Assembly: GCA_027327915.1 (NCBI GenBank)
Contig: DAHVWT010000001.1
Location: forward strand, 1 to 61,940
Length of the DNA: 61,940 nucleotides
From: Elusimicrobiota bacterium
GTDB taxonomy: Bacteria > Elusimicrobiota > Elusimicrobia > UBA1565 > UBA9628
Direction: 5' to 3'
The notes under the pieces are model-generated. The model was not told where the DNA came from. It made no database searches and was given only the letters and a program-made list of their open reading frames with translations. A program made the translations under genes and the position numbers. Shown here one piece after another: positions 18,835-56,411 of the stretch (positions are counted from its first letter, which is position 1; every line of letters begins with the position of its first letter).

Positions 18835-21679
<2,845 letters not shown>

Positions 21680-21680
<1 letters not shown>

Positions 21681-22807: not shown

Positions 22808-22834
22808 CCTAGTCTCTATTCATGCTGGGGATTG

Positions 22835-22946: not shown

Positions 22947-22951
22947 GTTTG

Positions 22952-28645: not shown

Positions 28646-29528
28646 AGCGTCGTCCGGGAAGGGCGATGATGAGATCGGAGAGTTCCATGTCGACTAGATG
28701 TTGAATCAAGGGCTGCGCGTCGGAGTCCACGGCCTCTCGAAGCTCGTCGAGCGTCAGGGTCTCGGAGCCCAGGGATTCTAGAATTTTGGACCAACCTTGG
28801 GAAACCCGCCGAGCGGCGGGAAGCGCCGTCGGCGCCGCCGCGGCCGGGCGCGAGCGCGCCGCGAGCTTGTCCTCGAGCCCCGGGATTTTCCAAAGGACCT
28901 CCTCGGCGCTCGTCAAAAGGGAGGCGCCGTTTTCGAGGAGCCAGTGGGGGGCTTGGCTCAAGGGCGACGAGGCGGGGCCCGGCACGGCGAAGACTTCGCG
29001 TCCCTGCTCGGCGGCGAGCTTCGCGGTGATGAGAGAGCCCGACTTGAGACGGCCTTCGACCACCACGCAGCCCATGCTCAGGCCGGAGATGATCCGGTTG
29101 CGGCGAGGGAAGTGGGCCGCCAGCGGCGCGGCGTCCGGGGGCAGTTCGCTGATCAGGCAGCCGCCCGAGGCGACGATCCGTTCGGCGAGATCCCGGTGCT
29201 CCGGAGGATAGACCTGCCCCAGGCCGCATCCCAGAACCGCCCACGTGGCGCCTCCCGCGTCGAGCGCCGCTTGATGGGCCATGCCGTCGATGCCGCGCGC
29301 CAGGCCGCTGACGACGGCGATCCCCTTCGCGGCCATGCCGCGCGCGAGCGCCGCGGCGGTGCGAATCCCGTAGGGGCTCGGGCGCCTCGAACCGACGATC
29401 GCGACGGCGGGGATCTCTGGATCGAGCCGCCCCCGGATGTAAAGGGCGCCGGGGGCGTCGGGGATTTCCTCGAGGAGGCGAGGGAATCCCGGCTCCCCTC
29501 GCCGCAGGACGCAAAGGCCATCGGTCAT
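28629..29528 (-). CDS. dprA: DNA-processing protein DprA (Rossmann-like core plus C-terminal wHTH, no N-terminal SAM domain)
   Basis: VAIVGSRRPSPYG, VVSGLARGID..AH, FP.RNRIISGLS, GSLITA..A.EQGREVFAVPG. Start MTDGLCV at 29528 overlaps the upstream stop (ATGA). Confidence 0.85.
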   Translation of the reverse strand: MTDGLCVLRRGEPGFPRLLEEIPDAPGALYIRGRLDPEIPAVAIVGSRRPSPYGIRTAAALARGMAAKGIAVVSGLARGIDGMAHQAALDAGGATWAVLGCGLGQVYPPEHRDLAERIVASGGCLISELPPDAAPLAAHFPRRNRIISGLSMGCVVVEGRLKSGSLITAKLAAEQGREVFAVPGPASSPLSQAPHWLLENGASLLTSAEEVLWKIPGLEDKLAARSRPAAAAPTALPAARRVSQGWSKILESLGSETLTLDELREAVDSDAQPLIQHLVDMELSDLIIALPGRRYARKT

Positions 29529-30004
29529 AAAAGTTCCTCGGAGAGGGAGCTTCCAGCCCGAAATCGTTGCGGTGCCGGGAGACCGGGAGCTTTGAGTCCC
29601 GAGGCCGCCGCGCGAGCCGGGGGCCTGGCTCGGGCCTCCTGGAGCCGCGGGGGCGGCGACTGGGTCGGCTGATTTCCCGCGACGACGCTCGCGACGCGGC
29701 TGAAGACGAGCTTGTCGCGGCTCATGCTCTCCCATTCCGAGGGGATGCGTCCGGCGCAGACGATGAGCCAGCGCGCGTCGAGGGAAAGGACCCGGGCGAG
29801 GCGGCGCAGGGCGTCCTCGTCGGAGGGAGGGTTTCTCTTGCCGCCCAGGACCTTCGAGAAAAACGACGGGTCCAGGCCGGAGAGCCGGCAGAGTTCCCTT
29901 AAGGAAATCCCCTGTCGGCGCATGCTATCGAGGATCTCGAAGGCGAAGGGATGGGCGGCGTAGGAGCTCCTTCGACCGGCGCCCAGCGGGCGTTCTTCCT
30001 TCAT
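29525..30004 (-). CDS. XRE-family helix-turn-helix protein
   Basis: MRRQGISLRELCRLSGLDPSFFSKVLGGKRNP is a Cro/C1-type HTH. The C-terminal half is low-complexity and Pro/Ala-rich. Confidence 0.65.
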   Translation of the reverse strand: MKEERPLGAGRRSSYAAHPFAFEILDSMRRQGISLRELCRLSGLDPSFFSKVLGGKRNPPSDEDALRRLARVLSLDARWLIVCAGRIPSEWESMSRDKLVFSRVASVVAGNQPTQSPPPRLQEARARPPARAAASGLKAPGLPAPQRFRAGSSLSEELL

Positions 30005-30651
30005 GGAGAGGGCTCCTTTTCCAGGAGGTCCCCATCCGTCGCGGCGTCCACGGCCTTAACAAGGGTCATCTCGTATCGTCGCGGGCCGACTTTTTTCTTG
30101 ACGACGGCGGTCGCGAACCACATGACGTGGCGCGAACCTGGAGCGTCGCCGGATTTCACGCTGTCCAGGCGCAAAAGCCGGAATCGTTGGCCCGCGGCCG
30201 GCCTGAGGCCTCGCCTCAGGATGGCAACGAAATCACCGCCCTTCTCGACCAGAGCCGGCGATTCCTCCGTCATGGGGGAGCCGACCTTGCCGTCCGGCTT
30301 CCAAGAACGGCCGACCCGCAGGCGCACCTCCGAGGGAGCATATCCCGGCTGCGACTTGGGAGCCGTCTCGGAAAGCCCCTCCCGAGGAGGGGGCGGGAGC
30401 TTGGGAGGCGCCGCCGTCGGGATGGAGAGGATATCGAGGGTTTGCCCGGGGTAGATCCAGTGCGGGTCGCGGATGACGGCATGGTTGGCGGCGTAGATGC
30501 GCTCCCACAGCCAGGGATCTCCGTAATAGCGCCGGGACAGATCCCAGAGGTCCTCTCCCCGTTCGACATGATGCTTGATCACTCCGGACGCCGACACGGC
30601 TGGCAGGAGAACGAAAGGGAGGAGATAAAACGCCTTTTTGAGAGTCATCAT
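30001..30651 (-). CDS. LysM peptidoglycan-binding domain protein, secreted
   Basis: Signal peptide followed by a LysM motif (HHVERGEDLWDLSRRYYGDPWLWERIYAANHAVIRDPHWIYPGQTLDI). Confidence 0.75.
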   Translation of the reverse strand: MMTLKKAFYLLPFVLLPAVSASGVIKHHVERGEDLWDLSRRYYGDPWLWERIYAANHAVIRDPHWIYPGQTLDILSIPTAAPPKLPPPPREGLSETAPKSQPGYAPSEVRLRVGRSWKPDGKVGSPMTEESPALVEKGGDFVAILRRGLRPAAGQRFRLLRLDSVKSGDAPGSRHVMWFATAVVKKKVGPRRYEMTLVKAVDAATDGDLLEKEPSP

Positions 30652-30671
30652 GGTCTGGGCCTACGGCATCG

Positions 30672-32255
30672 TCATAGCGGCGCCGCCAACGCCGCGGGAT
30701 CGGCCCAGAGCCGCTCCAGGCGATTGAGATCGAGGGCCTCGGCCACGTGTTCGCTCCGGATCTCGGGGCTTTGTCCCAAATCCGCGATCGTCCTCGACAG
30801 CCTGAGCGTGCGGTCAAGGGTTCTCGCGGAGACGGACCATCTCCGGGAGGCGGCCTCGAGGAGCTTGAGTCCGTCGCCGTCCAAGCGGCAGAAACGGCGC
30901 AGCTCCCTCGCAGGGATGCGGGCGTTGACGGCGAAATCCATTCCCCGGAAGCGTTCTTCCTGTATCTTCCGGGCCCCGAGAACGGCCTGCCGCGTGGTCG
31001 CGGAAGAGGGCGCGGCCGTCTCCCGCGCCTTTCCGGACCATTCGTCGAAGGCGATGGGGTTCATCTCGGCTAGGATGTCGATGCGGTCGAGGAGCGGGCC
31101 CGAAAGCCGCTGAGCGTAGCGCCCCAGCATCAATGGAGTGCAGAGACATTCGCGTCGAGGATGCCCCCGGAAGCCGCAAGGGCAGGAGTTCGTCGCCGCG
31201 ACGAGCATGAAGCGGGCTTGGTATTCGACGGCTTCCCGTGCGCGGGCGACCGTGATGCGCCCCTCCTCGAGAGGTTCCCGGAGCGCCTCGAGCGCCTGGC
31301 GGGAAAACTCGGCTAGTTCGTCGAGAAACAGGACGCCGTGGTGCGCCAGCGCGACCTCCCCGGGCTTGGCCCAGGGCCCCCCGCCCACGAGCGCGACGGC
31401 GGAGGCTGAATGATGGGGGGCGCGGAAGGGGCGTTGCCGGACGAGACCCGAGCGCGCCGCCCCGCTCCTCCCCGAGAGGGAGTGGACGCGCGTGATTTCG
31501 ATCATCTCTTGGGTTTTGAGCGGAGGGAGGAGGCCCGGCAGGCGCCTGGCGAGAAGGGATTTCCCCGTGCCGGGAGGGCCGATGAGGAGGATGTTGTGCG
31601 CTCCGGCCGCGGCGACGGTCATGGCGCGCTTGGCGAAGGCCTGCCCCTTGATGTCGGATAGGTCCTCGGCGTCTCCGGCCTCCGGCTCGCCGCCCGCGGC
31701 GCCGTCGCCGCCGGGACCGGCGTAGGGCCGCGGCTTTTCGCCGTCGGGCGCCCCGAGGAGAGCGACCGCCTCGCGAAGGGAATTGACGGGATGGACGGGA
31801 AGGCCCGCCGCCGCGGCTTCCTCGGCGTTCGCCGCGGGGACCGCCAGCGCCGTGAAGCCGAGCCTCTTGGCCTCCAAGGCCAGAGACAGCGTCGATTCGA
31901 TTTTCACGACGGTCCCGTCCAAAGCGAGCTCCCCCAGCAGGCAGAGGCGGGCTCCGGCGATGCTTTTCGGGATCTGCCCCGTGGCCTCGAGGAGGGCGAA
32001 GGCGATCGCCAGGTCGAAATGAGTTCCTTCCTTGCGGGCCCGGGCGGGCGACAGGTTGACGGTGATCCGTTTGGGAGCGAGGAAAAAGCCCGAGTTGCGC
32101 AGGGCGCCCATGAGCCTCTCCTTGGACTCCCGGACGGCCGCGTCGGGGAGCCCGACCACCGCGTAGGCCGGGAGGCCGTTGGCGACGTACGCCTCGACGG
32201 CGACGCAGTAACCCTCCAATCCCCGCAGCGCGAGGGAGTGCGCCCTGGCGATCAT
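30672..32255 (-). CDS. comM: YifB/ComM-family Mg-chelatase-like AAA+ ATPase
   Basis: N-terminal Lon-protease-like domain (GLPDAAVRESKERL), Walker A GPPGTGKS, Walker B VLFLDEL, and a C-terminal Mg_chelatase_C region. Confidence 0.9.
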   Translation of the reverse strand: MIARAHSLALRGLEGYCVAVEAYVANGLPAYAVVGLPDAAVRESKERLMGALRNSGFFLAPKRITVNLSPARARKEGTHFDLAIAFALLEATGQIPKSIAGARLCLLGELALDGTVVKIESTLSLALEAKRLGFTALAVPAANAEEAAAAGLPVHPVNSLREAVALLGAPDGEKPRPYAGPGGDGAAGGEPEAGDAEDLSDIKGQAFAKRAMTVAAAGAHNILLIGPPGTGKSLLARRLPGLLPPLKTQEMIEITRVHSLSGRSGAARSGLVRQRPFRAPHHSASAVALVGGGPWAKPGEVALAHHGVLFLDELAEFSRQALEALREPLEEGRITVARAREAVEYQARFMLVAATNSCPCGFRGHPRRECLCTPLMLGRYAQRLSGPLLDRIDILAEMNPIAFDEWSGKARETAAPSSATTRQAVLGARKIQEERFRGMDFAVNARIPARELRRFCRLDGDGLKLLEAASRRWSVSARTLDRTLRLSRTIADLGQSPEIRSEHVAEALDLNRLERLWADPAALAAPL

Positions 32256-33670
32256 CGAGGCGTCCCTTCCCCGTCGGCGCCCGCGGATTCCCTCTGCCGG
32301 GCGAGCAGGAAGTGGAAGGTCGTCCCCAGGCCCGGCTGGGATTCGAACCAGATCCGCCCGCCGTGCTTGGAGATGACCTCCCGGCAGAGCGCCAGCCCCA
32401 GTCCCGTCCCCGGGGCCTTGACCTCGGCATGGTTGGAGGCGCGGAAGAACTTCTCGAAGATGCGGTTATGCTCCGAGGCGGGGATGCCGATGCCGTTATC
32501 CTGGACGGAGACGACGATGAATTCTCCCTTGTCGCGGGCCGCAATCCTCACCTGCCCGCCCGGCCGCGTGAATTTCAAGGCATTCGACAGGATATTGTCC
32601 ACGACGAGGGAGAGCCATTTCGGGTCCCCCATGACAAGGGGGAGATCGCCCGGAATGTCCGTGGAGACGATCTTCTGGGCGCTTACGGCCTGTGGGGCGA
32701 GCGAGTCGACGCTCGATTCGACGATCTCCGCGATCCGGAGAGGGCGCATCTCCATGGAGACTCCCCCCTCGAGCCTCGTGAGATCCAAGAGCTCCAAAAC
32801 GATCGCCTCGAGGCGCCTCACCGATTTCAAGGCCATGTTCAAAAATCCCGTCTGTTTGTCGGTCAACGGCCCCGCCTCGCCCTCCATGAGGATGGTCAAA
32901 AACCCTCCCAGCGTCGTCAATGGAGTGCGGAACTCATGGCTTGCCGTCGACACGAACTCATCTTTAATACGGTTGAGGGCCTCCAATTGTTCCGTGGCCC
33001 AGGACAATTTTCTGTTGAGCATGGCCGTTTCGACGAGGATGGCGACCTCGTCGGCGATGAGGCGGGCGAAGCGCAGGTCGTCCGGCGTGAAGGAATCGGG
33101 CTGGACGCTTCCCACCCTCAGGACGCCCAGGGAGTGGGACTTCGTCTTCAAGGGAACCACCATCAGGGATCGGATGTTCCAGAGCTTGGCGTATCCGGCG
33201 GTGACGGAGGGGTCGCTTTGGGCGTCTCCGGTCATGAACGGCTCTCCGGACTTAAAGACCCGGACCGACGAGGAATTCTCCGCGGAAATGGGGATGCGGT
33301 AGAACTGGTCCTCGCTGTCCAGGCCGAAGGCTCCGGGCTGGGTGACAAGCTCCATCGTCGCCTCGTCGAGCGCCATGAGCGCCGCGAGGTCCGCCTTGAG
33401 GTATCTGGCGACGATTGTGACCACCGCGCTGAAGGCCGGTCTGGCCTGTTCGGCTTCCGCGGTGAGCGCCGCGGCCACCACCCGTAGGGTCTTGACCTCC
33501 CGGCGGCGGTGGTGTATCTTGCCGCGCGCCTCGGTCAGGGCTTCCTGGGATTTGGATCGGGAGTCCGTGAGCTCGCGGCGCAGCCTCCGGTTGACGGCGA
33601 GCGCCCAGGCGGCGAGAGCCAGAGCCGAGAGCGTCGCGACGCCCCACAAGAGATCAGAAGGCGGCATCAT
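32252..33670 (-). CDS. Membrane-anchored GAF-domain sensor histidine kinase
   Basis: N-terminal TM segment, coiled coil, GAF-like region, H-box FVSTASHEFRTPLT, N/G boxes (NALKFT, DNGIGIP, GTGLGLA). No cognate response regulator is adjacent. Confidence 0.9.
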   Translation of the reverse strand: MMPPSDLLWGVATLSALALAAWALAVNRRLRRELTDSRSKSQEALTEARGKIHHRRREVKTLRVVAAALTAEAEQARPAFSAVVTIVARYLKADLAALMALDEATMELVTQPGAFGLDSEDQFYRIPISAENSSSVRVFKSGEPFMTGDAQSDPSVTAGYAKLWNIRSLMVVPLKTKSHSLGVLRVGSVQPDSFTPDDLRFARLIADEVAILVETAMLNRKLSWATEQLEALNRIKDEFVSTASHEFRTPLTTLGGFLTILMEGEAGPLTDKQTGFLNMALKSVRRLEAIVLELLDLTRLEGGVSMEMRPLRIAEIVESSVDSLAPQAVSAQKIVSTDIPGDLPLVMGDPKWLSLVVDNILSNALKFTRPGGQVRIAARDKGEFIVVSVQDNGIGIPASEHNRIFEKFFRASNHAEVKAPGTGLGLALCREVISKHGGRIWFESQPGLGTTFHFLLARQRESAGADGEGTPR

Positions 33671-35134: not shown

Positions 35135-35710
35135 TTAGAATTGCAGCTTGAAGATGATTTCGATGACGGAGGCCTTGCGTCCCGCGGAGAAGGCGTCGAT
35201 CTGGCGTCGGGCGATGCCCGCGGAGCGCAAGGCCTCCGCGAGAGCCTTGAGCCAATCGGCGCCGAGGCCGTCTGGAACGACGACGGCGAGATCCGCGCCG
35301 GCCGCCTTCGCCTCCGCCGCGACGGCGGAGGGGTCCTCGCTCCCCGAAACCGCCCGATCGAGACATTCTTCGATCGCGAGGGGGCTCTTTGTCGCACCGG
35401 AGGCGAGGGTCTTGAGAAGAGAAGTCAGCCGCTCTTTGGCGGCCGCGCTCTTGGCGGTGCGAATAAAAGCAATCAGTCGTGTCCCCGGGCTTTTGGCGGC
35501 GGGGTTCGTGGCGGGGGGCGGCGACGCGAAGACGGGAACGGCCGCCGCGGAGACGGAGGCGGCCGCCTCGGGAATCGACGGTTCAGTCTCGGGCGCGGTT
35601 GGGCGATGCGGGCGTTCGGCAGGCTTGAGGGCCGAATCCGGGACAGCGCGGAAAACGGCTTCGAGGTCGGTCCAGACGCCCAGGGCTTTCTTGGGCGGCA
35701 AGGGACTCAT
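35135..35710 (-). CDS. Hypothetical protein (Pro/Ala-rich linker plus C-terminal alpha/beta-like domain)
   Basis: 191-aa ORF, ATGA-coupled to the upstream small gene. Its C-terminal ~100 aa resemble, by eye, the C-terminal domain of the DnaA-like ATPase (RLIAF.../RLAFF...; DLAVVVPDGLGADWL / DAVVVADGDADDWV). Confidence 0.55.
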   Translation of the reverse strand: MSPLPPKKALGVWTDLEAVFRAVPDSALKPAERPHRPTAPETEPSIPEAAASVSAAAVPVFASPPPATNPAAKSPGTRLIAFIRTAKSAAAKERLTSLLKTLASGATKSPLAIEECLDRAVSGSEDPSAVAAEAKAAGADLAVVVPDGLGADWLKALAEALRSAGIARRQIDAFSAGRKASVIEIIFKLQF

Positions 35711-35982
35711 GCGCGCACGATGCGAACGCCCTGGAGGGTCAGCCAGTCCGCGGCCAGGGGGCTCACGATGGCCCCGGCGGGCAGTTGAAGCTCCTTGGCG
35801 CCCGGTTTGAGCATCTTCTTGATCTCATATTCCGACACAAAGATCCTCCCGGCGGGGCCGTCGGAGCCCTTTCCCGCTTTTGGCCGGTGGACGGGAGTGG
35901 ACGGGTCGGGCGCGGGAATTTCGGCCTTGACCGGCTTGAGCTGGGAGACGATCAAATCGATGAGATCGTCGCGGGTCAGCAT
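35707..35982 (-). CDS. Small protein with an N-terminal encapsulation-peptide-like amphipathic helix
   Basis: MLTRDDLIDLIVSQLKP, then a Pro-rich linker, then a 45-aa C-terminal module (FVSEYEIKKMLKPGAKELQLPAGAIVSPLAADWLTLQGVRIV). It lies 37 nt downstream of a BMC-H gene. Confidence 0.6.
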   Translation of the reverse strand: MLTRDDLIDLIVSQLKPVKAEIPAPDPSTPVHRPKAGKGSDGPAGRIFVSEYEIKKMLKPGAKELQLPAGAIVSPLAADWLTLQGVRIVRA

Positions 35983-36019
35983 CGCGATTTATCGGCAACG
36001 CCCGCGCTCAACGACCCGC

Positions 36020-36325
36020 TCAGCGCGCGATCTTGATCGAGATCTGGTCAAGATACTTTTCCAAATCGTCGTGAGGGCGAGGGATCACGTGGACGCTGAC
36101 AAGCTCGCCCACTTTCTGGGCCGCGGCCGCGGCCGCGTCGACGGCGGCGCGCACCGCGCCGACTTCTCCGCGGCACAAGGTGGTGACAAGCCCCGAGCCG
36201 ATCTTCTCGTATCCCAGAAGGCGGACCTTGGCCGCCTTGGCCATCGCGTCCGACGCCTCGATCATCCCGACGAAGCCCTTGGTCTCGACAAGTCCCAGGG
36301 CCTCACGAACCGAAACCTCCGCCAT
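36020..36325 (-). CDS. BMC-H shell protein (PduA/EutM-type single BMC domain)
   Basis: [58 protein letters not shown]...VHVIPRPH is the canonical PF00936 pattern. Confidence 0.92.
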
Positions 36326-36361
36326 AAGAGCCTCCTTTCACGTCGACATTCATCTCGCTTA

Positions 36362-36676
36362 TTACGCCTCGCTCCAATCGTCCTCGTCCGCCTTCTTTTC
36401 CAGCTCGAGGATCGCCCCGCACGAGCCGCAGCGCTTGGCGGGGCTGTAGGTTCGCACGCATTCGTCGTCCTCCGGCCACCATTCCTCGAAAAACATGTCC
36501 GCCTTCTTGCGGCAGGCGAGGCAGAAGCGCTCCATGCCCGCCCCGCATCGCGGACAGAATTTGGGGGCGACCGCTTTTTCCGGCGAGGTTCCCGGCGCCT
36601 GGTGAATGAGGGCGCCGCAGGAGCCGCATTGATAGTCGATCGTGAGCTTGAATTTGGCGGGCTTATTTTTGGACAT
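36362..36676 (-). CDS. Double zinc-ribbon protein with an acidic C-terminal tail, function unknown
   Basis: 104 aa with four CxxC pairs (CGSCG, CPRCG, CLACR, CGSCG) and the tail EKKADEDDWSEA. Embedded between deoC and BMC-H. Confidence 0.7.
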   Translation of the reverse strand: MSKNKPAKFKLTIDYQCGSCGALIHQAPGTSPEKAVAPKFCPRCGAGMERFCLACRKKADMFFEEWWPEDDECVRTYSPAKRCGSCGAILELEKKADEDDWSEA

Positions 36677-36699
36677 GGTGGTGATCGTTCTAATCCGCT

Positions 36700-37746
36700 C
36701 TAGTATTTTCCCGGGGCCGGCTCCGATCCCGTGACGATGGCGACGCTTGCCGAGGTTCCGAGCCTTGTCGCCCCGGCGCGCACCATGGCTTGGGCGGCGT
36801 CGGCCGACCGGATGCCGCCCGAGGCCTTGACCCCCATCAAGGGGCCGACGGTCTCCCGCATGAGCTGGATGTCCTCGACGGTCGCTCCGCCCCCGCCAAA
36901 GCCCGTCGAGGTCTTGACGAAGTCGGCGCCCGCCTTCTTCGAGAGGAGGCAGGCGCGGATCTTTTCTTCCCGGGACAAAAGCGACGTTTCAAGAATCACC
37001 TTGAGCACGCGCCCGCGTGTTGCCTCCCGCACGGCCTGGATGTCGGAGAGGACCAAGGCGTCGTTGCCGGACTTCAGGGCGCCGATATTGAGCACCATGT
37101 CGATTTCCTCGGCGCCTCCCGCGATCGCGTCGCGCGCCTCGACGGCCTTGACGGTCGAGGTGGTGGAGCCGAGCGGAAAGCCGATCACCGTGCAGACCTT
37201 GACGCCGCTGCCCGCCAGGAGCCTTGAGGACAGCGGGACATAGCTCGGAGGAATGCAGACGGAGGCGAAGCAGTAGGCTTTGGCCTCCTCGCAGAGCTTC
37301 GCGATCTCCTCCTGGGTCGCGTTGGGCTTCAAGAGGGTGTGGTCGACGAGCCGGGCGATGGGGGAGCAGTTTTTCGCCGGCTTGCAGACGGCGACGCGGT
37401 CGAGGCCCAATTCCTTCAAATCCTTTTCGCTCAAGCTCGAAACGTTGTCGCAGTGGGGGCAGGCGGCGCCGGATCCGGAATGGTCCTCATCGCCGGAAGA
37501 TGCGGAGACCGCGGAAGAGCCGGGGCTCGCCGGAGCCTCCGGGGTCTTGCGCCAATCGCTCGAGAAGACCTTGCCGGCGGTCCCGATCGTGGTCCGGGCG
37601 CCGTTTTGCAGCGGTTTGAGCGACCCCTCGCCGTCTCGCCAATCGGTCCTCGAGGAGGGCGTCGAATCCGAGCCGCCGAGATAGCCCCTCTTGTGGAGGA
37701 CGCCCACGATCTCCTCGACGATCTTCCTGATATCAGGCTCACTCAT
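36700..37746 (-). CDS. deoC: Deoxyribose-phosphate aldolase (DERA) with a ~120-aa N-terminal extension carrying an encapsulation-peptide-like helix
   Basis: The DERA core starts at [24 protein letters not shown]....FASVCI, with the Schiff-base region [11 protein letters not shown]. The N-terminus is [23 protein letters not shown] followed by a long low-complexity linker. Confidence 0.9.
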
Positions 37747-38035
37747 AGCTTTTGGCCTTCCTCCCCGACACCACTTTTTCGACGATGCCGCAGACGACGG
37801 CGCGGACCGGAGCGTTCCGGTCGCCTAAAATCTGGCGCGCGCCGTTGCCCTCGTCCACGACCAAGACGACGCTGCCGGGGCCCGAGTCGACGCCGCCGTC
37901 GATCGCCATGACGGCGTCTCCCAGGGGCCTTTCCGTCAAGGGGTCGATCGGTTGGACGAGGAGCAGCCGGCGCTTTTCCATCGAAGGATGCTTGCGCGTC
38001 CCCCAGACGTTTCCCACGACGCTCGCGATGAACAT
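37739..38035 (-). CDS. BMC-P pentameric vertex protein (EutN/CcmL family)
   Basis: [31 protein letters not shown]...[21 protein letters not shown] is the PF03319 pattern. ATG at 38033..38035 shares 1 nt with the upstream stop. Confidence 0.88.
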
Positions 38036-38334
38036 TACCGGCGGCCCCCCCCTGCGGGCGCCCTGAAATTCCTGGCCTGATGCCCGTCCACGATCCCGAC
38101 GACGGCCGCGTCGACGGGCGGGACGTCCTCGAAGGCGACGGCCGCCTCGCGCGCGGCGACCCAGAAGACCTTCTCTCCCGCCCCCGCGCCGACGGCGTCC
38201 GCGGCGACGATGGAGGGCCCCTGCGCGGACTCGTCCTCCCACCGCAACGGCTGGATGAGAAGGAGTTTTTTGCCCTCGATGGCTTGGTCCTGCCGCGCGC
38301 AGAAGACCCGCCCCACGACCCGCGCGAGACGCAC
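38035..38334 (-). CDS. BMC-P pentameric vertex protein (EutN/CcmL family), second copy
   Basis: From GTG 38334: VRLARVVGRVFCARQDQAIEGKKLLLIQPL...AADAVGAGAGEKVFWV....A. Confidence 0.8.
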   Translation of the reverse strand: MRLARVVGRVFCARQDQAIEGKKLLLIQPLRWEDESAQGPSIVAADAVGAGAGEKVFWVAAREAAVAFEDVPPVDAAVVGIVDGHQARNFRAPAGGGRR

Positions 38335-38335
38335 G

Positions 38336-38818
38336 TTATTGGCCTCCCCGGCAGCCGCAGGCGGCCGAGAGCGGCGAATACTTATGCTCGATCTGGGAGA
38401 TCTTGGCGAGCCGGCGCTCATGACGGCCGCCTTCAAACGGTGTCTTGAAAAAGACGTCCAGCATTTCGGCCCAGGCCGCCTCGCCGTGGGTCTTTCCGCC
38501 GAGACAGAGGATATTCGCGTTGTCGTGGGCCGCCGCGAAGCGGGCGGAGACGGAGTTGTAGGCCGCGACGGCCCGGACGCCGGGGATCTTGTTGGCCGCA
38601 AGGGCCACCGCGCCGCCAAAGCCGTCCAAGAGAACGCCCTTCTCGAACTCTCCCGAGGCGACGGCCTCGCCGACCAGAAGCGCCACGTCGGGGAAGTCCA
38701 CGGCCTCCGGAGAGTGGCATCCGAAATCCGCCACCTCGTGCCCCGCGGCCTGGAGTCTCTTCTTGACGAACTCCTTGGCGGCGAAGCCGCCGTGGTCCGA
38801 CCCGACGACGATTCTCAT
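38336..38818 (-). CDS. rpiB: Ribose-5-phosphate isomerase B (RpiB/LacA/LacB family)
   Basis: MRIVVGSDHGGFAAKEFVKKRL...GVLLDGFGGAVALAANKIPGVRAA...HDNANILCLGG. The start overlaps the BMC-T stop (ATGA). Confidence 0.9.
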   Translation of the reverse strand: MRIVVGSDHGGFAAKEFVKKRLQAAGHEVADFGCHSPEAVDFPDVALLVGEAVASGEFEKGVLLDGFGGAVALAANKIPGVRAVAAYNSVSARFAAAHDNANILCLGGKTHGEAAWAEMLDVFFKTPFEGGRHERRLAKISQIEHKYSPLSAACGCRGGQ

Positions 38819-39366
38819 TTTCCGATCGTCTTCAAGAGCTGTTCGTGGGCCTGCGGGATGACGACGTGGGAGACGAGCATCCCCTCGGGCAGGATCGAAA
38901 CCCCGGCCGCGACGGCGGACTTGACGGCGCCCACGTCGGCGGTCATCGTGACGTAGCCCTTGCCGCCGCCCACGACGGTCTTGACCTCCAAGAGGTGGAC
39001 GCGCGCGGCCTTCGCGGCGGCGTCCGCGGCCATCACGGTTGAAATCGCTTCCTTCGTCTCGATGATGCCGACGGCGTCGAGGCTCTCGACGGGCCGGCGC
39101 TTCTCGAGCGCCTCCAGGACCTGGGAGTGGACGTTGCGGATGATGACCTCGTCGATCCTCGTCTTCCCCGCGATCTCGCGCCCGGCGCGAAGAGAGCTTT
39201 CGACCTCCCCCACGGGGCCCGAGACGAGGATCGTGTATTTCCCGCGGGCGATGACGGCGGTCTTGACCAAGGACACCGAGGCCATCTTGCACATGGCGTC
39301 CGAGGCCTCGATCCCCTTGGCGATCGAGGAGGTTTCCAGAAGTCCGACGGCGAGGTGAGCTTGCAT
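38815..39366 (-). CDS. BMC-T shell protein (tandem BMC domains, PduT-like size)
   Basis: 183 aa with two PF00936-like halves (AVGLLETSSIAKGIEASDAMCK... and AVGIIETKEAISTVMAADAAAKAARV...). Confidence 0.88.
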   Translation of the reverse strand: MQAHLAVGLLETSSIAKGIEASDAMCKMASVSLVKTAVIARGKYTILVSGPVGEVESSLRAGREIAGKTRIDEVIIRNVHSQVLEALEKRRPVESLDAVGIIETKEAISTVMAADAAAKAARVHLLEVKTVVGGGKGYVTMTADVGAVKSAVAAGVSILPEGMLVSHVVIPQAHEQLLKTIGK

Positions 39367-39384
39367 GGGGGATTCCTTTTTAGG

Positions 39385-40824
39385 TTAGGCGATCCTGAAG
39401 TAGCCGACCAGGCTGCAATGCAGCGGCCGGGCGAAGTGCATGGTTTTGGTGAGCCCGTCTCCCGTCGGGGTCCCGATCGACATGGAGGCGTAGCCCTCCC
39501 CCATGCCGAGCCCGAAGAGGTTCGGCGCGTTTTTGACGTAAATCGAGCACTGCATGCGCCGGCCCATCCGGGTGAGGTTGCCGACGTGGGTCGAGTGCAT
39601 GGAGGCCGTGTGGTGGTTCTCCCCCTCGGCCGCGTAGGCGAGCTCGATCGCGGCATCGACGTCGGGAACCTGGGTCACGGGCATGACGGGCATCAGCTGC
39701 TCGGTCCAGACGAAGGGATGATCGTTGGGGACCGCGGCCCACAGGAGGCGCGTCGTCGGCGGCACCGAAAGGCCGATGCCTTTCGCGATGTAGGCGGCGT
39801 CCTTGCCGACGTACTGTCGGTTGAGCCGGGGGTCCTTGCAGCCGCGGCCTCCCTCGACGATGACGAGCTTCGTCAGGGCGTCGAGTTGGGCGGGCGAGAG
39901 CTCGCAGGCGCGGGTGTCCCGGCGCAGGCATTCCAGAAATCGGCTCCAGGCGGCCTCGACGACGATCGTTTCCTTTTCCGCGGTGCACAGGACGTTGTTA
40001 TCAAAGGAGGCGCCGAAGACGATGTCCGAGGCGCATTGCGGGAAATTCGCGGTTTCATCCACCACCGCCGGCGGATTACCGGGCCCCGCCGCGATCGTCT
40101 TGCAGGTCTTGCCGACCGTCATCGCGACCTTGACGATGGCGGGGCCGCCGGTCACGAGGTTGACCCGCACGTCCGGATGGGCCAAGAGCGCCTTGGTCGT
40201 CTCCTGGGACGCGGGGGAGACCGTGACCATGAGATGGGGCGGCGCGCCGGCCTGGACGGCGGCCGCGCTCAGCACCCGCATCGCCTCGGCCGAGCATTGC
40301 GCCGCGGCCGGATGCGGCGAGAAGACGACGGCGTTTCCCGCCGAGAGGATCGAAATCGAGTTGTTGATGACGGTCGCGCCGGGGTTCGTCGAGGGGGTGA
40401 CGGCCGCGACGACTCCGAAAGGCGCGTACTCGACCAAGGTGAGGCCCTTGTCGCCCGTGTAGGCGCGGGACTCCAGGTCCTCGACGCCGGGGGTCCTGAG
40501 GGCGCAGATGAGGTTTTTCTGGACCTTGTCCTCCGCGCGGCCCATTCCCGTCTCCTCGGCGGCCATGCGCGCCAGCCGCTCGGCGTTGGCGACCGCGGCC
40601 TTGCGCATCGCCTCGATGATCTTGCGCCGCGCCTCGAGGCCCAGGCGCTGGAACTCCTCCTGGGCGGCGCGGGCGGCCTTGACGGCGTCGTCGACGCTTG
40701 AGAAGACGACGCCGGAGTCGCGAGCGGAGCCCCCCGACGCGCCCCAGGCGGCGTTCATCGTGCCCTGGGCCTTGAGGCGATCAAGGACCTGCGCGACGAC
40801 GCTCGCCAGTTCCTCCGGGGCCAT
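39385..40824 (-). CDS. CoA-acylating aldehyde dehydrogenase (PduP/EutE-type) with an N-terminal encapsulation-peptide-like helix
   Basis: ATG at 40824. The N-terminus MAPEELASVVAQVLDRLKAQG plus a linker precedes the ALDH core (PFGVVAAVTPSTNP, catalytic Cys region FDNNVLCTAEK, GEG..S). Confidence 0.92.
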   Translation of the reverse strand: MAPEELASVVAQVLDRLKAQGTMNAAWGASGGSARDSGVVFSSVDDAVKAARAAQEEFQRLGLEARRKIIEAMRKAAVANAERLARMAAEETGMGRAEDKVQKNLICALRTPGVEDLESRAYTGDKGLTLVEYAPFGVVAAVTPSTNPGATVINNSISILSAGNAVVFSPHPAAAQCSAEAMRVLSAAAVQAGAPPHLMVTVSPASQETTKALLAHPDVRVNLVTGGPAIVKVAMTVGKTCKTIAAGPGNPPAVVDETANFPQCASDIVFGASFDNNVLCTAEKETIVVEAAWSRFLECLRRDTRACELSPAQLDALTKLVIVEGGRGCKDPRLNRQYVGKDAAYIAKGIGLSVPPTTRLLWAAVPNDHPFVWTEQLMPVMPVTQVPDVDAAIELAYAAEGENHHTASMHSTHVGNLTRMGRRMQCSIYVKNAPNLFGLGMGEGYASMSIGTPTGDGLTKTMHFARPLHCSLVGYFRIA

Positions 40825-40826
40825 GC

Positions 40827-41147
40827 TCAACGGGGACTCCTCGCCGGCTGGGCGTCGGAGGCCTTCTCGAAGACCCTGCGTCCTCCCTCCTCGACCGAGT
40901 CGACGATGGCGAAGATGGAGGCGTCCACGGGGCGCTCCTGCGTCCGGGCGGTCTGGCGCGCGGAGGAACCCTGGACGACGAGGACGAGCTCCCCCTCCCC
41001 CGCGCCCACCGTGTCGACCGCCACCAAGGGGTTGCCCCGGGGCTCGTTTTTGAGGTCGACCGGCTGGATGAGAAGGAGCTTGAAGCCCACGAGCTTCTCG
41101 TCTTTCAGGGTGCAGACGACGGTTCCCGTCACACGCGCGAAGATCAT
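40827..41147 (-). CDS. BMC-P pentameric vertex protein (EutN/CcmL family), third copy
   Basis: MIFARVTGTVVCTLKDEKLVGFKLLLIQPVD...AVDTVGAGEGELVLVVQGSSAR. Confidence 0.88.
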   Translation of the reverse strand: MIFARVTGTVVCTLKDEKLVGFKLLLIQPVDLKNEPRGNPLVAVDTVGAGEGELVLVVQGSSARQTARTQERPVDASIFAIVDSVEEGGRRVFEKASDAQPARSPR

Positions 41148-41158
41148 CGGTGGCCGCC

Positions 41159-41263
41159 ACGGAAGGCTACGGAAGGCCACGGAAAGCCGCGGCGAGTCTC
41201 CGGCATGGCGGACTCATGCTTTCGAGCCTTCCGTCGCATCTGTGGCCTTCTTTTGCTTTCCGT
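41159..41263. repeat. Structured repeat element in the BMC-H / BMC-P intergenic region
   Basis: Three tandem 10-mers, ACGGAAGGCT ACGGAAGGCC ACGGAAAGCC (41159..41188). Their reverse complements follow in the same (not nested) order: AGCCTTCCGT (41225..41234), GGCCTTC (41244..41250), GCTTTCCGT (41255..41263). Shares motifs with 13003..13051. Confidence 0.55.
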
Positions 41264-41272
41264 TGCTTGGAC

Positions 41273-41572
41273 CTAGCGCTTGCCGCGGCCCAGGGTCTCG
41301 GGGAGGGAAATGGGCATCTTCCCCTCGAGGTCCGGGTGGGGCTGCGGGATCACGTGGACGGCGATAAGCTCGCCCACTTTCTGCGCGGCGGCGGCGCCGG
41401 CGTCGCAGGAGGCCTTGCAGGCCGCGACCTCTCCGCGGAAGAGGATGGTGACGAGGCCCGTGCCGACCTTCTCGTAGCCGACGAGCTTCACGTCCGCGGC
41501 CTTGACGGCGGCGTCCGCGGCCTCGACGCAGGCGACGAGGCCTCTTGTTTCGATCATACCGAGTGCGTACAT
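41273..41572 (-). CDS. BMC-H shell protein (PduA/EutM-type), second copy
   Basis: [59 protein letters not shown]...VHVIPQPH. Confidence 0.92.
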
Positions 41573-41609
41573 GGTTATCTCCTTGGCTTAGCTTGATGCG
41601 GCATGGAAA

Positions 41610-42248
41610 TCAGACGATGCGGACCTCGTCGCCGCCGCGGAGCCAGGCGGCGTTGGCCTCGTCGGTGTCGACGTGAAACTCGAGGCTGAACTTGTCGGAG
41701 ACTCGGCAGAGCACCTGCTCGAAGACGAGCTCGCGCGGCCCGTTGGTTCCGGCGCGCACGCGCACGACCTCGCCGTCCTCGATCCCCAGGGCCTTGGCCT
41801 CGAGGGGATGGAAATGGATGTGGCGCCGCGCGACGATGAGTCCCTCCTTGATCTCAAGCGAGCCCTTGGGGCCGATGACGCGCACGCGCGACGACCCGGC
41901 GAGATCGCCCGAATCGCGGATGGGGGGCCTCAGGCCCAGGGCCTGGGCGTCGGTCTGCGAAATTTCAATTTGGGTCTTGGAGCGGTGGGGCGCCACGAGG
42001 CGGACGTTTTTGATGGCGCCCTTGGGACCCTCGATGTCCACGGTCTCGTAGCAGGCGTAGAAGCCGGGCTGCTTGACCTGCTTGAATTTGCGCACCGCCG
42101 CGCCCTTGCCGAAGAGGACGTCGAAGTCCTCCTGCTTGAAATGGACGTGTCGGTTGGAGACCCCGACGGGGATCGCGGTCTTCGAGCGCTCCATGCGCGA
42201 GACGATCTCCGCCGTGATGCGCCGGGCGAGCTCGGGGTCCTGGTCCAT
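41610..42248 (-). CDS. pduL: PduL-type phosphate acyltransferase with an N-terminal encapsulation-peptide-like helix
   Basis: Two PduL repeats (IPVGVSNRHVHF and IVARRHIHF) and the N-terminus MDQDPELARRITAEIVSRMERS. Confidence 0.92.
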   Translation of the reverse strand: MDQDPELARRITAEIVSRMERSKTAIPVGVSNRHVHFKQEDFDVLFGKGAAVRKFKQVKQPGFYACYETVDIEGPKGAIKNVRLVAPHRSKTQIEISQTDAQALGLRPPIRDSGDLAGSSRVRVIGPKGSLEIKEGLIVARRHIHFHPLEAKALGIEDGEVVRVRAGTNGPRELVFEQVLCRVSDKFSLEFHVDTDEANAAWLRGGDEVRIV

Positions 42249-43036
42249 TAGGGTCTCCGGGTCCCGGCGGCCGCGAGGGTCTTATAGTGGATAATGCGGA
42301 GGAAAGAGATCGGCTTGAGGCTTTCCCCGCCGACCAGGGCGCCGTCGACATCCGGCTGGGCCATGAGGGCGTCGATGTTTTCGGCCTTGACCGAGCCCCC
42401 GTAAAGGATGCGCAGGGCCGAGGCGAAACCCTCGCCGTGGGCCTGGGATGCGAGCTTGCGGATGAAAGCGTGGGCTTCCTCGGCCTGGGCCGGGGAGGCG
42501 GTCTTGCCGGTTCCGATCGCCCAGACGGGCTCGTAGGCGAGGGTGATCTTGGCCGCCTCGACAGGCGGCAGGCCCGTGAGGGCGGCGCGGAATTGCTCGG
42601 TGAGCGCCCCCCACGTCTTCTGGCTCTCGCGCTCCTCGAGGGTTTCTCCCACGCAGAGGATCGGCAGAAGGCCCGCGGCAAGCGCCGCGGCGAGCTTTTT
42701 CGCGACGATAGCGCTCGTTTCGCCGAAAAGCCGGCGCCGCTCGCTATGCCCCACGATCGCGTAACGGCATCCCGCGTCGGCCAACTGGAAGGCCGAAATT
42801 TCCCCCGTGAAGGCTCCCTGGGGCTCCCAATGAAGATTTTGCGCCCCGAGCTTGACGGGGCTTCCCTTGAGAATTTCGGCCACGACGGCCAGGGCCGTGA
42901 AGGGAACCAAGAGAGCGACCTCGGCATCTCCGGCCCCCACGCCCTCCCTGATCTCTCGCGCGAGCTTGGCCGCGTCGGCCAAGCCCAGATGCATCTTCCA
43001 GTTGCCGGCGATGAGGGGGATGCGTTTGGGGTTCAT
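42248..43036 (-). CDS. tpiA: Triose-phosphate isomerase
   Basis: MNPKRIPLIAGNWKMH, AIVGHSERR, YEPVWAIGTG, YGGSV. Start taken at ATG 43036 (family-typical N-terminus) rather than GTG 43060. The stop overlaps the pduL start by 1 nt. Confidence 0.9.
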   Translation of the reverse strand: MNPKRIPLIAGNWKMHLGLADAAKLAREIREGVGAGDAEVALLVPFTALAVVAEILKGSPVKLGAQNLHWEPQGAFTGEISAFQLADAGCRYAIVGHSERRRLFGETSAIVAKKLAAALAAGLLPILCVGETLEERESQKTWGALTEQFRAALTGLPPVEAAKITLAYEPVWAIGTGKTASPAQAEEAHAFIRKLASQAHGEGFASALRILYGGSVKAENIDALMAQPDVDGALVGGESLKPISFLRIIHYKTLAAAGTRRP

Positions 43037-43043
43037 TCTAGTA

Positions 43044-43060
43044 GTGGCCAAATTGGCCAC
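43044..43060. promoter_or_regulatory. Perfect 8-1-8 palindrome in the tpiA 5' leader (candidate operator or RNA hairpin)
   Basis: GTGGCCAA-A-TTGGCCAC lies 7 nt upstream of the tpiA ATG. It contains two TGGCCA hexamers, and a third TGGCCA lies at about 43088. Confidence 0.35.
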
Positions 43061-43112
43061 ACGCTCTCGTTCCGGCGGCCGGGCGCCTTCTTAAGCGTGG
43101 CCATGGCAACCG

Positions 43113-43142
43113 ATTTTAGCGAATGGCGGGGAAACGGGTCAA
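43113..43142 (-). promoter_or_regulatory. Sigma70-type promoter for the BMC operon
   Basis: Minus-strand reading: TTGACC (43137..43142), 18-nt spacer, TAAAAT (43113..43118), about 75 nt upstream of the tpiA start. Confidence 0.5.
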
Positions 43143-48908: not shown

Positions 48909-50396
48909 TTATAATTCCGCGCGCCGGGCGGCGTGTTTCCAGCTCTCAAGACGCCTCTCGCGCCGTTTTTGGGATAGGTTCGGCCGAAACTCCCTGTCCT
49001 TGCGCCATAACGCCCGGACTTCATCGAGGTTTTTCCACGCGCCGACGCCGAGACCGGCCATGAAAGCGGCGCCCAGGGCCGTGGTTTCGACGATGCGCGG
49101 CCTGACGCAGCGCGCGCCCGAGTAGTCCGCCTGGAGAGACATGAAAAGATCGTTCGCCGAAGCGCCTCCATCAACCTTGATGACCGCGACCCGCCGTCCC
49201 AGGTCGCGCTCCATGGCTCTCAGGAGTTCGACGTTCTGGAGCGCCAGGCCCTCGAGGACGGATCGGGCGATATGGGCCTTGGCGGCGCCTCGCGTCAGTC
49301 CGCAAAGAAGTCCTCGCGCGAGCGGCTTCCAGCGCGGCGCGCCCATTCCCGTTAAAGCCGGGACGAACTCGACTCCGGCCGAATCATGAACGGATCGGGC
49401 GAGGGATTCGACGTCGGAGGAGCGGCGGATGATCCCGAGGCCGTCGCGCAGCCATTGGACCGCCGCCCCGCAGACGAAGGCCGAGCCTTCGAGGGCGTAG
49501 CGGACGCCTCCCTTCCAGCTCCAAGCGACCGTCGGGAGGCAGCCGGAGCGGCTTGGGAGCGGGCGGCTGCCCGTGTTGATCAGGAGAAAACTTCCCGTTC
49601 CGAACGTGCATTTGGCCTCTCCCGGCCTGAAGCACGCCTGGCCGAAAAGCGCCGCCTGCTGGTCCCCGGCCATGGCCGCTATCGGGACGCCGTCCGGGAT
49701 CAACGAGGCGCCGCGCGTGCGGCCGAAAATCCCGATCGTCGGACGGATCTCGGGAAGCATCGCCGCGGGGACGCCGAGGGCGCGGCAGAGCATGGGATCC
49801 CAACGAAGGCCGCGAAGGTTCATGAGGAGGGTCCGGGAGGCGTTCGTCGGGTCGGTCGCGTGGACGGCGCCTCCCGTCAGGCGGTGGAGGAGGGCGCCGT
49901 CCACGGTCCCGAAGGCGATATCCCCCGACTCGGCGCGTCGCCGCAGGTTTTTCGATTGGTCGAGGAGCCAGCGGATCTTGGTTCCCGAGAAATAGGGGTC
50001 GAGCCGCAGGCCCGATCGGGCCCTCACGACGGACTCCAATCCTCGGCGTTTGAGCGCGCCGCAGAGCCCGGCCGTCCGGCGATCCTGCCACACGATGGCG
50101 TTGCCGAGCGGCTTTCCCGTGCGGCGTTCCCAGAGGAGAGTCGTCTCCCTTTGATTGGCGATGCCGATCGCGGCGATGCCGCCGCCGCGTAGCCCCGCGG
50201 AGTTGAGCGCCTCGCGGGCGGCGACGAGGACGGAGCTCCAAATGTCGTCGGGGCGATGCTCCACCCAGCCGGGCTCCGGGAATATCTGGGGGAATTCCCT
50301 TGTCGCTTTTCCGAGGACGTCGCCCCGCGAACCGACGACCAGGACGGTCGTCCCGGTCGTTCCCTGATCGATCGCGAGGAGGTGTTTGGAGGGCAA
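48909..50396 (-). CDS. glpK: Glycerol kinase
   Basis: LLAIDQGTTGT, EFPQIFPEPGWVEH.PDDIW, IANQRETT, GDQQAALFGQ. Start set at TTG 50396 (MPSKHLLAIDQG). This gives a family-typical length and lies just downstream of a strong promoter that sits inside the longer track ORF. Confidence 0.9.
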   Translation of the reverse strand: MPSKHLLAIDQGTTGTTVLVVGSRGDVLGKATREFPQIFPEPGWVEHRPDDIWSSVLVAAREALNSAGLRGGGIAAIGIANQRETTLLWERRTGKPLGNAIVWQDRRTAGLCGALKRRGLESVVRARSGLRLDPYFSGTKIRWLLDQSKNLRRRAESGDIAFGTVDGALLHRLTGGAVHATDPTNASRTLLMNLRGLRWDPMLCRALGVPAAMLPEIRPTIGIFGRTRGASLIPDGVPIAAMAGDQQAALFGQACFRPGEAKCTFGTGSFLLINTGSRPLPSRSGCLPTVAWSWKGGVRYALEGSAFVCGAAVQWLRDGLGIIRRSSDVESLARSVHDSAGVEFVPALTGMGAPRWKPLARGLLCGLTRGAAKAHIARSVLEGLALQNVELLRAMERDLGRRVAVIKVDGGASANDLFMSLQADYSGARCVRPRIVETTALGAAFMAGLGVGAWKNLDEVRALWRKDREFRPNLSQKRRERRLESWKHAARRAEL

Positions 50397-50409
50397 GAAC
50401 TTGTCGAGG

Positions 50410-50437
50410 ATTATAGCACCCCATGGCCGAAGGTCAA
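50410..50437 (-). promoter_or_regulatory. Sigma70-type promoter for glpK with an extended -10
   Basis: Minus-strand reading: TTGACC (50432..50437), 16-nt spacer ending in TGC, TATAAT (50410..50415), 13 nt before the TTG start. Confidence 0.5.
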
Positions 50438-50451
50438 GGGGGTGAGAAACC

Positions 50452-50525
50452 GGTGACACCATACTCATTGTCCCTTCGGCCCGCGCCGGCCGGCGGCGGC
50501 CCTTGGAAATAGGGATGGTGTCACC
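50452..50525. promoter_or_regulatory. 11-bp perfect inverted repeat pair upstream of the glpK promoter
   Basis: GGTGACACCAT (50452..50462) and ATGGTGTCACC (50515..50525), 52 nt apart. The proximal arm lies 14 nt upstream of the -35. A 13-nt-period tandem AATGAACGGGTC x2 follows at 50534..50558. Confidence 0.5.
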
Positions 50526-50587
50526 AGATTTCAAATGAACGGGTCCAATGAACGGGTCAAATCTCGAAATAAACGGGGTGGTAGAGT

Positions 50588-56375: not shown

Positions 56376-56411
56376 GATAGGAACCCCCTGATTTCCGCGA
56401 CCCATCCCGAA

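Follow-up and report, generated by a model that had tools for sequence, protein, structure and literature searches.

We analysed a 61,940-nt stretch of DNA from an Elusimicrobiota bacterium (GenBank assembly GCA_027327915.1, contig DAHVWT010000001.1, positions 1 to 61,940 of the forward strand), which is referred to below as the window. Positions 35707-43142 carry genes for bacterial microcompartment (BMC) shell proteins interleaved with genes for a deoxyribose-phosphate aldolase (DERA), an RpiB-like protein (RPI), a triosephosphate isomerase (TPI), a CoA-acylating aldehyde dehydrogenase (AldDH) and a PduL-type phosphotransacylase (PTAC). We consider it highly likely that this interval is the main locus of a BMC of the sugar-phosphate type SPU1 from an uncultured Elusimicrobia bacterium, that a promoter of its own in front of tpiA drives its transcription, and that it encodes a catabolic metabolosome that cleaves deoxyribose-5-phosphate (Dr5P). 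An inspection of the sequence alone (the original prediction) had proposed an SPU-type compartment here. Gene content, gene order and shell signatures all agree with that identity, which could be sharpened to the subtype SPU1.

Gene content and assignment to SPU1

According to Sutter et al. 2021 (Nat Commun, PMC8217296 Suppl. Data 2), SPU1 comprises 62 loci, all of them from Elusimicrobia; a renewed curation of these loci was given by Dwyer et al. 2024 (PMC11585597). The type is defined by DERA and RPI genes adjoining two BMC-P genes, by the presence of AldDH, PTAC and TPI, and by a BMC-P triplet (PMC8217296). Its two BMC-H proteins carry the motif pairs KAAK/PRPH and KAA(N/D)/PQPH, and its BMC-T(s) is related to PduT but lacks the pore cysteine, with PduS/PduT occurring only as satellites in five genomes (PMC8217296). 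In the window, two BMC-P genes abut and the third lies apart from them, the DERA gene has shell genes of the BMC-P and BMC-H families near it on either side, and PTAC and TPI are both encoded inside the main locus. The translation of BMC-H paralogue 1 reads AKAAKV...IPRPHD and that of paralogue 2 VKAADV...IPQPHP. When the BMC-T was aligned to 3NWG and to PduT (3PAC, 3N79), ARGK was found at the position of CPGK, and the protein thus has no pore cysteine. This 183-aa, PduT-like BMC-T(s) is the sole tandem BMC protein, and BMC-T(dp) is absent. Since gene content, gene order, BMC-H motifs and the Cys-less BMC-T match the description of Sutter et al. 2021, we assigned the locus to SPU1. In its core (taxon, enzyme set, shell genes and order) it does not differ from the catalogued loci, with which it also shares the lack of an alcohol dehydrogenase (ADH). 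It is therefore a canonical, already catalogued SPU1 main locus, an orthologue and no new kind of system.

The interval is spanned by 13 tightly packed open reading frames (ORFs) on the minus strand, with intergenic distances between -4 and about 125 nt and a high third-position GC like that of the rest of the genome (window G+C ~65%). In the direction of transcription the order is TPI-PTAC-H-P-AldDH-T-RPI-P-P-DERA-CysRich-H-p91, that is, six shell genes (two BMC-H, one tandem BMC-T and three BMC-P), five enzymes and two small conserved genes (Table 1). The eleven genes named in the original prediction were all recovered at the given positions, exactly or within a few codons, and all on the minus strand. 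Every one of them exceeds its Pfam gathering score by a wide margin, and the proposed shell set of two BMC-H, one BMC-T and three BMC-P proteins was borne out in full by the cut-offs of PF00936 (24.5 bits) and PF03319 (25 bits). The two small genes, which encode a 104-aa Cys-rich protein and a 91-aa protein (p91), lie inside the same interval and had not been described.

The linkage of enzymes and shell genes holds in relatives. Ten related SPU1 loci (L001-L008, L084-L086) share the gene order of the window, with DERA identities of 53-98%. Among 120 listed DERA homologues the closest are 56-90% identical, and wherever a source is named it is an Elusimicrobia metagenome-assembled genome (MAG). 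These homologues, and not an rRNA, are the basis on which the analysis placed the window in Elusimicrobia. The nearest species-representative genome is the MAG DBS1-2.bin105 (JAJYFI01), and two contigs, ERZ27237019 k141_422415 and IMG 3300039716 Ga0438459_0000476, show 90% identity. The genes are 80-99% identical to those of a related population, without frameshifts.

Table 1. Positions of the genes and sites discussed (window coordinates unless a related locus is named)
Feature	Position	Strand	Evidence or remark
Sigma-70-like promoter TTGACC-18 nt-TAAAAT before tpiA	43113..43142	-	10/12 positions
17-bp palindrome, candidate operator	43044..43060	.	between -10 hexamer and tpiA ATG
Triosephosphate isomerase (TPI, tpiA), 262 aa	42248..43036	-	PF00121 (TIM) 302.6 bits; start codon adjusted
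PduL-type phosphotransacylase (PTAC)	41610..42248	-	PF06130 235.3 bits
BMC-H paralogue 2, KAAD/PQPH motifs	41273..41572	-	PF00936 96.5 bits
BMC-P, third (solitary) pentamer gene	40827..41147	-	PF03319 113.6 bits
CoA-acylating AldDH, EutE/PduP-like, 479 aa	39385..40824	-	PF00171 120.2 bits; NF011927 567.9 bits; start codon adjusted
BMC-T(s), PduT-related tandem-domain, 183 aa	38815..39366	-	two PF00936 domains, 130.6 bits
RpiB-like protein (RPI), 160 aa	38336..38818	-	PF02502 (LacAB_rpiB) 149.8 bits; start codon adjusted
BMC-P of adjacent pair, GTG start	38035..38334	-	PF03319 78.9 bits
BMC-P of adjacent pair	37739..38035	-	PF03319 79.2 bits
DERA, signature enzyme, 348 aa	36700..37746	-	PF01791 (DeoC) 67.5 bits; TIGR00126 290.7 bits
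104-aa Cys-rich protein, double zinc-ribbon-like knuckles	36362..36676	-	conserved, SPU1-restricted
BMC-H paralogue 1, KAAK/PRPH motifs	36020..36325	-	PF00936 97.4 bits
91-aa protein (p91)	35707..35982	-	EP-like (encapsulation peptide-like) helix, Pro-rich linker, ~45-aa C-terminal domain
AphA-like protein, ~198 aa	43139..43735	-	AphA/HAD-IIIB relative
5'-nucleotidase (Metallophos + 5_nucleotid_C)	L003 2455-3972; L084 1-1383; L085 1-1277; L086 2643-4154		before SPU1 locus
PilT/T2SSE-family ATPase	L084 12977-14047; L085 12032-13108; L086 11963-13051		after p91
191-aa ORF	35135..35710		no family match
DnaA-like protein, 485 aa	33654..35111	-	Walker A/B part of DnaA-type AAA+ domain
GAF histidine kinase	32252..33670	-	
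ComM-DprA-topoisomerase I block	26282..32255	-	
dnaA, dnaN, gyrB, gyrA	16294..24301 (dnaA 22952..24301)	-	
Glycerol kinase GlpK	48909..50534	-	TIGR01311 616.8 vs 590.35
FGE-sulfatase domain protein	55014..56405	-	
FGE-sulfatase domain protein	2271..3155	-	
Mobile/defence-like patch	900..6471		

DERA, its probable RPI partner and the proposed pathway

The primary structure of DERA was examined in detail. The protein scores far above the deoC equivalog cut-off (TIGR00126, 117.3 bits) and possesses an N-terminal extension of ~125 aa, as solved DERAs (280 bits) align only to residues 129-341. The extension contains, at residues 3-24, an amphipathic helix with a hydrophobic moment of 0.67, followed by the motifs GTAGKVF (55-61) and CPHC (96-99) and by Cys121; 24 homologues share these motifs without variation, as they do the catalytic residues D216, K278 and K307. 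The public gene call of the window DERA (P0002, 100% identity, 68% coverage) has 236 aa as against 348 aa in our ORF, and has lost the encapsulation extension. Extensions of this kind are carried by all SPU DERAs and are often truncated by automated annotation (Dwyer et al. 2024, PMC11585597), and the short call is an annotation artefact of the kind described there.

The only SPU enzymes characterised biochemically are those of SPU6 (Dwyer, Sutter and Kerfeld 2024, PMC11585597). Purified SPU6 DERA cleaves Dr5P in vitro and binds its RPI at a stoichiometry of roughly 1:1; this RPI has negligible ribose-5-phosphate isomerase activity and leaves the kinetics of DERA unchanged (PMC11585597). In addition, SPU-type shells from Hodarchaeales are reported to self-assemble (2025 preprint, PMC12747264). 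The earlier statement that no SPU compartment had been isolated or had its substrate proven thus no longer holds for the enzyme in vitro, and stands for the native compartment and the in vivo substrate: a native SPU compartment is still to be isolated, and none of the experimental work concerns SPU1.

Concerning RPI, the window protein reads LLDGFGG where 3HE8 has VICGTGL. The catalytic Cys is replaced by Asp and the neighbouring Thr by Phe, and the His is kept. The Asp/Phe variant is conserved in all seven SPU1 copies compared, and Asp replaces the catalytic Cys in all SPU RPIs (PMC11585597). The protein falls below the rpiB equivalog cut-off (123 vs 138.65) and passes the broader RpiB/LacA/LacB family of NCBIfam. 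Its original naming as RpiB is therefore right as to the family (PF02502), but the protein is probably not a ribose-5-phosphate isomerase. By analogy with SPU6, it is probably a partner or scaffold of DERA.

These features also bear on the possibility that the substrate is a different sugar phosphate, with the Asp variant of RPI being a true isomerase whose product is cleaved by DERA, and Dr5P serving only as an in vitro surrogate. The RPI-like gene is kept in most SPU types, its Asp/Phe site is strictly conserved rather than degraded, the protein remains a member of the broader family while failing the equivalog, and mycobacterial RpiB is active with Glu at the position of the Cys (discussed in Dwyer 2024, PMC11585597). 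On the other hand, the window DERA is a clear deoC equivalog with all catalytic residues kept, SPU6 RPI is almost inactive on ribose-5-phosphate and without effect on DERA (PMC11585597), and the gene content suggests no candidate substrate. We therefore regard a substrate other than Dr5P as very unlikely.

Amphipathic helices were also predicted at the N termini of other enzymes of the locus, in keeping with SPU1, where AldDH and often PTAC carry encapsulation peptides. PTAC begins with such a helix at residues 5-20 (ARRITAEIVSRMER, hydrophobic moment 0.61). AldDH, which exceeds the EutE-like cut-off (NF011927, 403 bits) and reads NNVLCTAEKE around its catalytic Cys, has an EP-like helix at residues 3-18 (EELASVVAQVLDRL, hydrophobic moment 0.58). 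The EP-like helices of DERA, AldDH, PTAC and p91 precede their respective domains, which suggests a role in encapsulation. TPI enters its IAGNWKMH core directly and has no EP-like extension, and none of the seven SPU1 RPIs compared has a terminal extension. The lack of a targeting peptide on both proteins, each of which begins directly with the catalytic fold, had been noted before and is confirmed here. Taking into account that SPU6 DERA and RPI form a complex, the most economical reading of these sequences is that DERA, AldDH, PduL and p91 would be targeted by their own peptides, that RPI would enter by binding to DERA, and that TPI would stay outside.

We thus favour the following pathway, which draws on the family model and on the SPU6 experiments. 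Dr5P, derived from degraded DNA or deoxynucleosides, would enter a shell whose two BMC-H proteins are charge-complementary in sequence. DERA would cleave it to glyceraldehyde-3-phosphate (GAP) and acetaldehyde. The volatile and toxic acetaldehyde would be trapped and oxidised to acetyl-CoA by AldDH with reduction of NAD+ to NADH, and PduL would convert acetyl-CoA to acetyl-phosphate, regenerating CoA within the shell. Acetyl-phosphate and GAP would leave the shell, and TPI most likely equilibrates GAP and dihydroxyacetone phosphate (DHAP) on the outside. The Cys-less RPI most likely enters as a stoichiometric partner of DERA, with a function in core packing and not in catalysis. The conversion of Dr5P to acetyl-phosphate by DERA, AldDH and PduL had been put forward from the sequence; it is the published model for this locus type, and every defining feature of the model that could be examined was found in the window.

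Compared with the EUT and PDU metabolosomes, the common principle is that the signature enzyme, which generates an aldehyde, shares its enclosure with PduL and an acylating AldDH, an arrangement that traps the volatile aldehyde and recycles CoA. Cargo with N-terminal encapsulation peptides (EPs), which in the window are predicted, is a further common trait. The signature enzyme in the window, however, is a cofactor-free class I aldolase instead of a B12 enzyme, phosphorylated sugars serve as the substrate and appear as one of the products, and there is no ADH corresponding to EutG or PduQ for internal recycling of NAD+. With the SPU6 locus of Chloroflexi bacterium GWB2_54_36, the window shares a DERA with a helix-containing N-terminal extension as signature enzyme, an RPI-like partner with the Cys to Asp exchange, an acylating AldDH and a BMC-P triplet. 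SPU6 differs in that it has BMC-T(dp), only one BMC-H and a GntR/UTRA regulator, carries the EP of AldDH at the C terminus and an EP at the N terminus of RPI, and usually lacks PTAC. The window locus, in contrast, includes PTAC and TPI, has only BMC-T(s), carries the EP of AldDH at the N terminus and none on RPI, and has a palindromic operator-like site in place of the adjacent GntR gene.

Promoter, palindrome and two small genes

Upstream of tpiA we found TTGACC-18-TAAAAT (43142-43113), the best sigma-70-like match in the region 32-47 kb, where the promoter scan detected four such sites vs 0.8 expected. The 5' limit proposed for the operon, position 43142, coincides with this match, to which no other site in the 15 kb is equal. 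In L001, L005, L003 and L086 both hexamers (-35 and -10) are kept, and the flanking sequence diverges. Between the promoter and tpiA lies a palindrome, GTGGCCAA(T/A)TTGGCCAC (window copy GTGGCCAATTTGGCCAC), which is unique in the window (0.11 expected). A single copy with at most two mismatches is found at the same position in 7/7 SPU1 loci that include the region and nowhere else in them, and 1.34 Mb of unrelated loci contained only four matches at up to three mismatches. Substitutions are one-sided in five loci, without compensatory pairs. An RNA hairpin was rejected on these grounds and because the loop would be at most 3 nt; the one-sided variants favour a candidate protein operator rather than an RNA stem.

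The Cys-rich gene is always located between the DERA and BMC-H genes in the SPU1 loci compared. The protein has ten invariant residues (C17, C20, H25, C41, C44, C52, C55, C73, C83 and C86), rubredoxin-like CxxCG/CPxCG knuckles and a near-invariant FFEEWWPE..EC.RTY motif. Its 53 homologues come from Elusimicrobia MAGs wherever the source is named, and a profile search of 1.84 billion representatives matched only 11 clusters, none of them beyond the family. In Pfam and NCBIfam the only matches were to zinc ribbons and stayed below threshold, and Foldseek against PDB, carried out with an AF2 model of mediocre confidence (pLDDT 69.9), gave nothing below E 0.9. An apparent fusion (P0180) was rejected as a DERA read-through artefact. 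As for p91, an invariant N-terminal EP-like helix (MLTRDDLID..., DDLIDLIVSQL) is followed by a Pro-rich linker and by ~45 C-terminal residues that resemble the end of the EUT-associated TIGR02536 'eut_hyp' at E 6.4e-5, below threshold. The family profile had no match among PDB sequences. p91 follows BMC-H1 in 8/10 related loci (those named include L001-L004, L006, L008 and L084-L086), and the remaining L007 and L012 show a contig end or no match. The conserved core of SPU1 thus consists of 13 genes, not 11. Neither small protein is discussed in those portions of the published SPU1 descriptions that we consulted.

Points against the assignment, and the genomic neighbourhood

Several observations weigh against the interval being an operon for a Dr5P-cleaving metabolosome. 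Pfam scans of about 50 ORFs revealed no ADH in the locus, in agreement with the original prediction, and none in the entire 62-kb window; nor did they reveal PduS/MNdh with the Cys-pore BMC-T, T(SE). The window also holds no deoxynucleoside phosphorylase, phosphopentomutase or deoxyribokinase that would feed the pathway; deoB, deoA, deoD, GpsA and a second shell cluster were likewise absent in these scans. The 3' end of the operon is not defined by the terminator scan (15 sites vs 14.4 expected), and beyond it co-directional genes continue with tiny gaps. At the other end, the window lineage lacks the upstream 5'-nucleotidase of some relatives and has rplM-rpsI and two unknown ORFs there instead, and the AphA-like protein, whose gene adjoins the SPU1 promoter on the upstream side, no longer has the catalytic Asp residues (GFDGT/SSSARE in the window and L001 vs DYDDT/GDSDSD in L003). 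Encapsulation, direction of flux and physiological substrate in SPU1 are all deduced from sequence.

According to Sutter et al. 2024 (PMC11626177), MNdh-T(SE) is a general module for NAD+ regeneration, and how loci with neither this module nor an ADH recycle the cofactor 'has yet to be determined'. Because the window has neither, NAD+ must be regenerated by a satellite locus elsewhere, by exchange through the pore of the Cys-less BMC-T or by an unrecognised component. The missing NAD+ recycling is an already recognised gap for the type, and a satellite elsewhere in the genome is possible. The missing ADH and the untargeted TPI and RPI had been singled out as peculiarities; they are correctly observed here and are recognised for the type as a whole (PMC8217296 Suppl. 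Data 2; PMC11626177). We also considered that the Cys-rich protein and the CPHC...C of DERA might form a metal or redox module, used for electron export or redox-gated assembly in place of ADH or MNdh/BMC-T(SE), with the operon being controlled by a sensor via the palindrome. The conservation of these residues is the evidence in its favour, and such an arrangement seems very unlikely.

The lack of an ADH can also be read in terms of the opposite direction of flux, in which the compartment acts as an electron or aldehyde sink. PduL would convert acetyl-phosphate to acetyl-CoA, AldDH would reduce this to acetaldehyde with consumption of NADH, and DERA would form Dr5P by condensing the acetaldehyde with GAP that TPI provides from DHAP. 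All four reactions are reversible by established enzymology, net consumption of NADH needs no such internal recycling partner, and the operon begins with tpiA. As summarised in PMC6281690, an 'aldehyde condensation and storage' model was put forward for Atribacteria BMCs with the same DERA/RPI/AldDH core (Nobu et al. 2016). However, the DERA equilibrium and the measured SPU6 activity are established in the cleavage direction (PMC11585597), PduL and AldDH are the standard core of catabolic metabolosomes, the problem of NAD(H) exchange is equal in both directions, and the flanking genes in relatives point to nucleotide breakdown. Reverse flux is in our view unlikely.

The flanking genes concerned encode a 5'-nucleotidase of the secreted type and a HAD-IIIB protein related to AphA, and they precede tpiA in L003, L085 and L086; L084 has only the former. 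These phosphatases fit a nucleotide-scavenging role of SPU1 generally, and provide no evidence for the window genome itself, which departs from the other SPU1 lineages in this periphery: its locus comes directly after rplM-rpsI and lies near dnaA, the 5'-nucleotidase is missing, and the membrane-anchored AphA-like neighbour has degenerate catalytic motifs. These losses, together with the lack of a recycling enzyme in the window, could indicate an inactive or partial remnant in this lineage, or a TPI that is merely a housekeeping copy co-transcribed by chance, with no working organelle. We judge this extremely improbable, as 13/13 ORFs are intact with high third-position GC, no frameshift separates them from the related population, and catalytic motifs, interface motifs, promoter and palindrome are all conserved. 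The locus is thus still best regarded as that of a Dr5P-cleaving SPU1 metabolosome.

On the downstream side, a 191-aa ORF stands in the window where other SPU1 lineages have a gene for a PilT/T2SSE-family ATPase (L084, L085 and L086 in Table 1). It is followed by a fast-evolving DnaA-like protein, which retains only the Walker A/B part of the AAA+ domain, and by a GAF histidine kinase. The pair is also found just downstream of SPU1 in L001, L004, L012, L084 and L086. The DnaA-like protein was rejected as a BMC component and is treated as a neighbouring signalling gene product, as its distant relatives of ~650 aa, found in Gemmatimonadota, reside in Che/Roadblock/PatA_N/TPR clusters without shell genes; the pair is possibly a sensor for the operon. 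Alongside it, an HTH_31 protein (29525-30004) is a candidate among the neighbours for binding the palindrome. The co-directional genes beyond, joined by stop/start overlaps, encode a ComM/YifB-like Mg-chelatase ATPase, a LysM protein, an XRE-type HTH protein, DprA and topoisomerase I. The ComM-DprA-topoisomerase I block also follows SPU1 in L001, L003, L004 and L086, and does not follow the pair in L084. Genes for DNA uptake thereby stand beside those of a proposed DNA-sugar catabolic organelle. The BMC locus lies close to the origin, with dnaA-dnaN-gyrB-gyrA about 11 kb away; cumulative GC skew is lowest near 10-12 kb.

Upstream, the only related enzyme nearby is the glycerol kinase GlpK, 6 kb from the operon. 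Genes for BipA, an NlpC/P60 protein and ribosomal proteins as well as divergently oriented genes intervene, and no link to the BMC is established. Elsewhere in the window, the mobile/defence-like patch combines an AbiEi/AbiEii toxin-antitoxin pair with an ATPase (AAA_14/DUF4143) and an rve-type integrase that does not reach the Pfam cut-off, and two proteins carry FGE-sulfatase (formylglycine-generating enzyme-like) domains, one of them fused to several ankyrin repeats, which is unusual for a bacterium.

SPU compartments are among the most widespread microcompartment types, and since no native example has been isolated, the complete locus of the window may serve as a construct for reconstitution. 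The absence of targeting peptides from RPI and TPI across SPU1 makes the entry of RPI via DERA a testable prediction, and the conserved promoter and palindrome offer a handle on the regulation of SPU1. Should the Cys-rich protein and DERA form a metal or redox module after all, SPU1 compartments would solve NAD+ recycling or assembly with components peculiar to them.

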